A stretch of 57,188 nucleotides of DNA from a virus (IMGVR_UViG_2657245570_000014), one strand, 5' to 3'; shown: positions 53,242 through 54,296, counted from the first letter of the stretch. A program made the numbers and translations. Notes: generated from the sequence alone by a model not told the origin.

Positions 53242-53392
53242 GCGAAATTAACTAGAAGCCAAAGATAAAATCATCGCTGAGCAGGAGAAAATCGCTAACG
53301 GAGAAAAGACAGTAAGTCAGTATATGAAAACCGCATGATATCATCAGATAAAAATCGGTCGTAAAGCGAAATATTAATACCAGAACAAACGA

Positions 53393-53416
53393 GTCGAGGT
53401 AAATTATATTACCTCG
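53393..53416 (-). terminator. Hairpin downstream of the membrane cargo gene (possible terminator)
   Basis: Perfect 9-bp inverted repeat TCGAGGTAA / TTACCTCGA. Confidence 0.4.
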
Positions 53417-53451
53417 ATAAATTAACTAAAACTTGCCCGCTATATACTATA

Positions 53452-54054
53452 TCATTCAGTATCATCACGCGCGGTCTGTGCATATGTCACTACCGCACCT
53501 AATATATTAATTTTCTTTTCAACATAGATAATATTATCGTACTCATAATTGCCATACGGATAGCAAATGCGAATATTCTCATGTAGATCGGGGTCATCCA
53601 CCTCAGCTCCAGAACAACTTTTTGAACTACCGGAAGTATACCGATACGGTGCAACATAAGACGATGTCTCTCCAGGCAAAAAATAAGTTAGTGTCGTAAG
53701 GGGTATAATCAGAAAAAATCCTGCAAATATGCACATCCCTGCATAAACCTTAAGGTATGCTGACAGACTCTTCCAGCCTCTTTGTTTTACTATCCCCTTC
53801 TTAACCCAAAACAGAGATAACAGAAAAGCTATTCCCATGCTAAACAGAATGTAATAGTGGGATATACTCTGATTAAGAAACGTGACCCTGTAGATATCTG
53901 CCCGCCACCAGAAGAAAAGGAAAATAAAGATCAGCCCTGAAACTGTCATGCAAATCAAATAAGGATACGAATCTTTTTTCATGTTTAGCGCCCATAAAAT
54001 TTTTCCTGACCCGGACAAATTTACCATCCATTTTTTGCGCAGAAAATAGCTCAT
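53452..54054 (-). CDS. Polytopic membrane protein, unknown function (lambda b-region cargo)
   Basis: 200 aa; several hydrophobic segments; AT-rich; opposite strand to all neighbours; start may be an internal Met. Confidence 0.6.
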   Translation of the reverse strand: MSYFLRKKWMVNLSGSGKILWALNMKKDSYPYLICMTVSGLIFIFLFFWWRADIYRVTFLNQSISHYYILFSMGIAFLLSLFWVKKGIVKQRGWKSLSAYLKVYAGMCIFAGFFLIIPLTTLTYFLPGETSSYVAPYRYTSGSSKSCSGAEVDDPDLHENIRICYPYGNYEYDNIIYVEKKINILGAVVTYAQTARDDTE

Positions 54055-54296
54055 TACTTACTGCACAATAATACACAAAATTGCGTAAATTTTTTGCATG
54101 GATTTTAGCTCTTTCAGCCGACATTTAAGGGGTAAATAGCATTTCCTAAAAGCAACTGCACCAACCCAACAGAATGGGCTACCGCTTACGTTGAGAGCAA
54201 AAAAGTGTATAGCAGCAATGAACAGCATCCTCGCACTGACGAGGATTTCTTTTATCTGAACTCGCTACGGCGGGTTTTGTTTTATGGCGATGATAA

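Follow-up and report, generated by a model that had tools for sequence, protein, structure and literature searches.

The locus and its borders

The viral stretch IMGVR_UViG_2657245570_000014 (57,188 nt; the window, that is, the whole DNA analysed) ends in a lambda-type prophage integrated beside ybhC. All positions are those of the whole window, and features on the minus strand are marked (-). The (+) strand genes of the prophage are ordered as gam, bet, exo, orf60a, orf63 and a TraR/DksA-like gene, followed by orf55, xis and int. Between the TraR/DksA-like gene and orf55 lies the gene studied here, which is read on the (-) strand (Table 1). Judged from sequence, it is a self-contained accessory gene ("moron") of a lambdoid lineage that includes phages 434, mEp332 and 2B8 and many E. 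coli prophages, and it is predicted to encode a 176-residue inner-membrane protein. The word moron is said, after Juhala and colleagues in 2000 and Cumby and colleagues in 2012, to mean an autonomous accessory transcription unit of a prophage.

BLASTN showed that the prophage is collinear with lambda (98%) up to a point 16 nt into ea22, and that the collinearity resumes just past the stop codon of ea8.5. The acquired segment stands where lambda has 1024 bp holding ea22 and ea8.5. Foreign DNA between collinear genes was thus found, as a replacement and not a pure insertion. Its base composition is also unlike that of the surrounding genes. GC content is 0.39 in the gene and 0.38 in the segment, whereas the flanks reach 0.46-0.49 and the window as a whole 0.51. 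In P2-like hosts the gene is likewise GC-poor (0.38-0.44 versus about 0.52-0.55). The stump of ea22 left at the border overlaps the stop codon of the TraR-like gene.

A terminator-like hairpin was scored on the (-) strand 35 nt beyond the stop codon of the gene, and minimum-energy folding of the 3' end reproduces it (z = -2.5). Upstream, the start codon that we favour (Met25 of the longest open reading frame (ORF), see below) is preceded by a candidate extended -10 element, with a predicted transcription start near 54010-54011 (-). In 7 of 11 loci from four lineages, a TGNTANNNT motif lies 44-48 nt before the ATG. The promoter scan called no standard promoter upstream of the Met25 start (53982); the sole (-) consensus promoter site in the gene (53949-53921) falls just downstream of the Met25 ATG. 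It is plausible from these motifs that the hairpin and the -10-like element make up an autonomous unit antisense to pL transcription. Altogether, 8 terminator-like sites were found in 52900-54600 on both strands, compared with 1.5 expected from shuffles, and an Rfam search of the same interval returned no RNA family.

These results bore out most of what a first sequence-only reading had claimed of the locus. It had placed an AT-rich gene between the TraR-like gene and orf55/xis, on the strand opposite to every neighbour, in place of the ea22/ea8.5 interval and with a perfect 9-bp hairpin downstream. The place is confirmed by ORF calls and by the RefSeq annotation, and the replacement by exact junctions with lambda. 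Its view of the gene as independently organised, horizontally acquired membrane cargo is supported by the foreign GC content, the opposite strand, the terminator-like hairpin, the -10-like element and the sharp lambda junction.

Table 1. Features of the locus and of compared loci (window positions unless another locus is named)
Feature	Position	Strand	Basis or remark
Coding sequence, most likely product 176 aa (stop codon 53452-53454)	53452-53982	-	Met25 start common to all relatives; dN/dS 0.10-0.16
24-codon upstream extension of the maximal ORF, probably untranslated	53983-54054	-	stops in 8/8 relatives; overlaps predicted promoter
Maximal ORF, 200 codons	53452-54054	-	ORF call; identical RefSeq annotation WP_001348592.1, hypothetical protein
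AT-rich replacement segment, 973 bp	53254-54226		lambda homology ends at 53253 and resumes at 54227; GC 0.381
Lambda ea22 stump, five codons (GTG AGC GAA ATT AAC TAG), left junction	53238-53255	+	aligns to first 16 nt of lambda ea22 (L013 1440-1455)
Terminator-like hairpin: perfect 9-bp stem, 6-nt loop, then CTCGTTTGTT	53394-53417 (arms 53394-53402 / 53409-53417)	-	inverted repeat; terminator scan
Candidate extended -10 promoter element TGGTAAATT, 35 nt upstream of ATG	54018-54026	-	inferred from sequence
Three 10-bp-spaced TTGTGC-type repeats (TTACGC, TTGTGT, TTGTGC), P88-like backbone relic	54063-54088	-	also in P88 and P2-like prophages L005, L014, L021
P88-like backbone relic, far side of presumed cos core	54115-54204	-	versus P88 (L022) 3715-3806, 70%, E 8e-5
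TraR/DksA-like gene	53020-53241	+	left neighbour
orf55	54297-54464	+	right neighbour, before xis and int
Two lambda-backbone terminator-like hairpins (tL4 of phage 434), right junction, upstream of orf55	54227-54246, 54258-54277 (span 54227-54277)	+	context, outside acquired segment
Terminator-like hairpins, pL direction	52942-52960 (before TraR-like gene); 54454-54473 (after orf55)	+	terminator scan
Enterobacter orthologue	~6001-6510 or ~8001-8507 in L007, L028-L031, L035, L036

Coding sequence and predicted protein

The start codon was assigned by comparison with diverged relatives from Salmonella, Klebsiella, Enterobacter, Citrobacter, Cedecea and Pseudescherichia. These proteins (166-189 aa; identity down to 33-45%) all begin at the residue aligned with Met25 (MKKDSYPYL). 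The first 24 codons of the 200-codon ORF are not conserved, and in-frame stop codons lie upstream in all eight loci examined. Since the relatives begin at Met25 and are preceded by stops, the real product is most likely the 176-aa protein. The upstream starts (the 200-aa start at 54054, an ATG at 54027 and the TTG at 54018 that is annotated in phage 434) were rejected as non-conserved, promoter-overlapping and interrupted by stops in the relatives. A 56-aa upstream ORF (54058-54228), also annotated in phage 434, was rejected as well; it overlies relics of a P88-like phage backbone and is not conserved as an ORF. The earlier description of a 200-aa polytopic membrane protein therefore stands for the 200-codon ORF and fails for the length of the product, and "polytopic" is to be read as three helices with a soluble domain at the C-terminus.

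The full-length AlphaFold model (20-sequence alignment) had a predicted local distance difference test score (pLDDT) of 86.5, and the C-terminal domain modelled alone reached 91.2. Helices are predicted at about 5-29, 38-61 and 69-101, a short strand at 34-36 and a five-strand beta domain at 105-171. The loop 62-77 contains 4 K/R and zero acidic residues, the C-terminal domain has a net charge of -6, and Cys123 and Cys140 in this domain are invariant in 33 sequences. The model predicts a cytoplasmic N-terminus, three membrane helices and a periplasmic C-terminal five-strand beta-barrel. Consistently, the charge pattern and the two cysteines fit an N-in/C-out topology with a disulfide-bonded periplasmic domain, and the periplasmic barrel probably contains a disulfide bond. 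Conservation peaks in the loop 30-37, which includes the short strand, and in the barrel, so the conserved face would be periplasmic. The predicted cytoplasmic segments are tiny (~5 and ~10-16 residues). A lipoprotein was also considered and rejected, for lack of a lipobox and of conservation at Cys11.

Database searches placed the protein in a small family of its own. Profile search of 1.84 billion representative proteins returned 61 relatives only, all of one small family; one large match, a 3074-aa repetitive protein (P0124) with sub-threshold Pfam repeats only, was dismissed as chance. In Pfam-A the best match was DUF6057 (E 0.18, far under the cut-off), with no consistent family across 33 members. 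NCBIfam gave no match to the window protein, and a PDB sequence search gave nothing under E 0.5. The PHROG search found phrog_1416, covering residues 113-200 only, and a weak phrog_19046 (E 0.57), both of which are function-unknown; the phrog_1416 profile was probably built from truncated copies. The sequence-only reading had named two observations that would speak against it, namely homology to a housekeeping transporter and a reading frame not conserved in related prophages. The searches returned no transporter and no Pfam or NCBIfam family, and the frame proved to be conserved, as described below.

The gene is under purifying selection. The ratio of nonsynonymous to synonymous substitution rates (dN/dS, Nei-Gojobori) was 0.13, 0.10 and 0.16 in comparisons with copies of 78%, 71% and 59% identity, and intact copies make up 73 of the 80 found on viral contigs. 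These data bear on the idea that the gene came along as a hitch-hiker, now serves no function in this prophage and is decaying. E. coli P2-like prophages abound in truncated forms lacking helices 1 and 2 (P0131/P0133, 112 aa; P0138, 81 aa; P0086, 96 aa), which may be pseudogenes or a working form with one helix; at least 1000 contigs carry P0131. The window copy also has a weak Shine-Dalgarno sequence. Decay would explain all of this. Against it, dN/dS is 0.11 even between the window and the phage 434 copy and stays low against distant copies, most viral copies are intact, and 905 of 5426 complete E. coli genomes (about 17%) carry the segment at a coverage of at least 80%. We consider decay the least probable of the explanations weighed here.

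Origin and distribution of the segment

Within lambdoid phages the segment is nearly uniform. The interval 53242-54296 is 98.6-99.6% identical in phages 434, mEp332 and 2B8, and a protein-level search of 50,697 phage records found the gene only in these three. Among 80 loci from IMG/VR, 65 are lambdoid and carry the gene in the same slot with 97-100% identity. The phage 434 gene CPT_434_36, "putative membrane protein" (OL657226), is the same gene in the same segment. Its annotation differs in having a TTG start (188 aa), a further "membrane protein" of 56 aa upstream and a "CII site"; conservation supports none of the three. Beyond attP, phage 434 (L001 7459-9055) has fragments of NleC-like and NleH-like type III effector genes and an IS1414 remnant, where the window has ybhC. 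A protein 100% identical to that of the window is also encoded on L026 (JARKOR010000073.1, 3561 bp), which is filed under a "Candidatus Nanosynbacter" metagenome-assembled genome of Saccharibacteria and is almost certainly a fragment of an E. coli prophage that was binned wrongly.

Another 14 of the 80 loci are P2-like, with copies 46-79% identical to the window copy. In these loci the gene always lies between the portal gene gpQ and the replication gene gpA, on the portal's strand, and this placement was also found in E. coli, Salmonella and Klebsiella prophages. The gpQ-gpA locus is the position of old and tin in P2 and is a hotspot of anti-phage systems (Rousset et al. 2022, PMC9122126). 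Table S5B of that study lists a "System #4" with no Pfam family, 470 occurrences, a single protein and 3 transmembrane segments (PMC9122126). System #4 is homologous to the window protein over its full length (51% identity over 168 residues, E 2e-56, BLASTP). The sequence of System #4 is absent from the table of cloned systems in the same study (PMC9122126), so it was not among the systems assayed there. The family is therefore already annotated as hypothetical and listed as abundant hotspot cargo, and it is not a new kind of element.

Our alignments also gave the origin of the whole segment. Positions 54119-53362 match an E. coli P2-like prophage (L014, 5864-6619) with 76% identity over 761 bp, spanning the upstream region, the gene and the downstream region, and 53295-53252 is a further match to L014. 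The sequence upstream of the gene is P88-like phage backbone, and P88 itself lacks the gene. Positions 54119-54062, which include the TTGTGC-type repeats, align to P88 (L022) 3885-3942 (78%, E 1e-8). The stretch of ~78 bp that follows in P88 (L022 3807-3884) has no counterpart in the window, and the backbone is taken up again on its far side (Table 1). The P88-like flanks of a presumed cos site are kept in the window (54062-54204 (-)), in P88 (3715-3942) and in L014 (5749-5924). The missing ~78 bp is probably the cos core of the donor, because it adjoins a match to the P2 cos flank. The P2 cos 19-mer was not found in P88, and alignment to the P2 cos junction matched the flank only. We infer that the cos core was deleted.

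The P2-like match that reaches beyond the gene, together with the pieces of P88 backbone, argues for transfer from a P2-like phage to a lambdoid phage. On this comparison the segment came out of the gpQ-gpA hotspot next to cos in a P2/P88-like phage. A single, recent transfer is indicated by the near identity of the lambdoid copies, set against the diversity of the P2-like ones. The segment is a clear case of cargo moving between unrelated temperate phage types, in which scars of the donor's packaging region are visible. The first reading had overlooked this P2-like origin of the whole segment, as well as the true start codon, the periplasmic beta-barrel and the identity with the phage 434 gene.

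The same upstream region bears on a possible part in the phage's own life cycle, such as CII-controlled expression in the establishment of lysogeny, or a role in lysis or DNA entry. The TTGT-N6-TTGT sequence at 54065-54078 (-) coincides with the binding site for "transcription factor CII" annotated in phage 434, and its spacing to a weak -10-like AGCTAT resembles, in our own reading, that of pRE. This annotation falls inside the TTGTGC repeats. TTGT-N6-TTGT is part of the 10-bp repeats native to P88-like phages, which occur in phages that lack the gene and lambda CII, and by our estimate chance alone would yield about six such sequences in a genome of 48 kb. We therefore rejected the reading as a CII site, and the annotation in phage 434 is probably a mis-assignment. 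In addition, lambda does without the gene, which is not near lysis or tail genes and is found outside prophages too. A life-cycle role is accordingly very improbable.

Outside the lambdoid slot the gene occurs in varied company. In all contexts it is a single gene. In other copies the neighbouring cargo is a YafO toxin (L005 6703-7083), an AAA_16 pair (a 790-aa AAA_16 protein and a 279-aa partner, L017/L018 2281-5623), or HNH_2 or HipA-like genes. In two further prophage loci the gene adjoins the integrase beside the HNH_2 or HipA-like cargo (L114 5381-6502 and L116 5622-6926; an HNH_2 protein and a HipA-like kinase with a helix-turn-helix domain). It is possible that these neighbours are defence or toxin genes. 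At least 7 Enterobacter species (E. cloacae complex) have a syntenic chromosomal orthologue beside a GGDEF gene, with a host-like GC content of 0.50-0.54, and chromosomal singletons with no phage genes nearby were found in Klebsiella sp., Cedecea and Pseudescherichia.

Candidate functions and known systems

The first reading had put the gene in the class of lysogenic conversion or exclusion, an assignment drawn from its context. We favour, with a probability of roughly 0.4, a prophage-expressed accessory protein that would give superinfection exclusion at the envelope, by analogy in kind with P22 SieA and HK97 gp15. In the repressed prophage, a weak constitutive promoter of its own would drive the gene in antisense to the pL operon. 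The protein would reside in the inner membrane, where its conserved periplasmic face (the loop 30-37 and the barrel) would hinder genome delivery by superinfecting phages. Because it has almost no cytoplasmic mass, the protein alone would neither sense nor act on intracellular events. Exclusion is favoured by the combination of single-gene prophage cargo, little cytoplasmic mass, a periplasmic conserved face and the existence of inner-membrane analogues that block entry, and by the frequency of the family in the gpQ-gpA hotspot of anti-phage systems. The same prophage type also has sieB and ral ~5 kb upstream of the gene (L003 311-892), giving the lysogen at least one exclusion function besides.

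Several points weigh against exclusion. PADLOC-DB v2.0.0 gave no family match at E <= 1, and hhalign of the family profile gave no homology to P22 SieA (probability 0.2%). Association with the hotspot is weak evidence, given that the gpQ-gpA locus also carries partition systems and toxins and that 3 of 8 additionally cloned systems defended (PMC9122126). The promoter is a sequence motif only, and the ribosome-binding site of the window copy is weak. The 112-aa truncated form is common enough in E. coli P2-like prophages to indicate that loss is tolerated. We found no expression, localisation or phenotype data for any family member in the literature, and no study of the gene in the literature on its accession, phrog_1416, mEp332 or 434 exclusion. 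Finally, the Enterobacter orthologue is evolving about as fast as its neighbours (83-97% amino acid identity, compared with 84-86% for the GGDEF protein next to it), and this points to a general role in the cell more than to an arms race.

This last observation supports the main rival, namely an envelope or fitness factor unrelated to phages that benefits the lysogen. Such a protein may serve envelope-stress tolerance, act as an orphan immunity protein against a periplasm- or membrane-acting bacteriocin or a type VI effector, or modulate an inner-membrane complex or a sensor kinase. The vertically inherited, GC-ameliorated orthologue in Enterobacter, the chromosomal singletons, the periplasmic conserved surface and the non-defence cargo of the P2 hotspot (PMC9122126) would all be expected of it. 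However, prophage cargo slots, which are known for exclusion genes such as P2 old and tin, contain the majority of the copies and of the diversity. No toxin, effector or regulator gene consistently adjoins the gene, and no Pfam immunity family was matched. The case of HK97 gp15, which has a chromosomal homologue (YebO), makes a chromosomal orthologue compatible with an exclusion role of the phage copy. We regard a phage-independent envelope role as possible, and somewhat less probable than exclusion.

The three helices and the location in defence hotspots also bring to mind an abortive-infection effector, since the membrane proteins of known defence systems are usually suicide effectors (PMC9122126). 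Triggered by envelope perturbation at phage entry or lysis, it would depolarise or permeabilise the inner membrane so that the infected cell dies. Against this, the gene has no sensor partner in any context, its product has hardly any cytoplasmic part, the folded periplasmic domain is more conserved than the helices, and the gene is kept as an ordinary chromosomal gene in Enterobacter. Abortive infection is accordingly unlikely. Like the life-cycle role and decay, it is less likely than either exclusion or a phage-independent envelope role.

Within the favoured reading, superinfection exclusion, a more specific form can be proposed, which we consider doubtful as a whole. The protein would be a widespread single-gene anti-phage barrier that had escaped recognition, in which a membrane-anchored, disulfide-stabilised, OB-like periplasmic barrel binds tape-measure or ejection proteins or DNA and stops translocation. 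This barrier would be old in P2-type hotspots, domesticated in Enterobacter and recently spread via lambdoid prophages including 434. If the gene is indeed an exclusion factor, it would represent a structurally new family, combining a membrane anchor with a periplasmic barrel, among the few understood entry blockers, and would matter for the response of E. coli lysogens to phages used in therapy or met in the environment. The gene is common yet unstudied, being present in the textbook phage 434 and in about 17% of complete E. coli genomes, and being the fourth commonest cargo of the P2 hotspot.

Among known systems, System #4 is the nearest counterpart. It shares with the window protein its length, the three helices and the C-terminal CSGA...ICYP domain. 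Nearer P2-borne copies (78% amino acid identity) are 76% identical to the window in DNA, and there the match reaches beyond the gene. Unlike System #4, the window copy does not lie between gpQ and gpA; it occupies the lambdoid ea22/ea8.5 slot and retains P88-like cos-flank relics. In P2-like prophages the family adjoins cos and reads away from it as old does. The products of the P2 genes are of another kind, Old being an ATPase-nuclease of the cytoplasm and Tin a soluble protein, and neither is homologous to the family.

HK97 gp15 is the inner-membrane product of an accessory gene that blocks genome entry, and it has chromosomal YebO-family homologues in Enterobacteriaceae only (PMC3594210). 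Its gene is of foreign GC content and has its own promoter and terminator (PMC3594210); the window gene resembles it in foreign GC content, a candidate promoter element and a terminator-like hairpin. The two proteins are different, and the PHROG search with the window protein returned only the two function-unknown families named above. gp15 is much smaller, has no folded periplasmic domain and is encoded in the tail operon.

P22 SieA, a three-helix inner-membrane protein of 162-164 aa, blocks DNA injection (PMC10883804). The SieA motif FxRYPxEAxxFNK is cytoplasmic (PMC10883804) and has no counterpart in the short cytoplasmic segments of the window protein. SieA lacks a periplasmic beta-barrel, and its gene lies between genes 16 and 9 of P22-like phages. 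SieA is expressed by the prophage from its own promoter and, with ~160 aa and three helices, works as a single gene (PMC10883804). By hydropathy and AlphaFold, the window protein likewise has three predicted helices in 176 aa, with a predicted localisation in the inner membrane.

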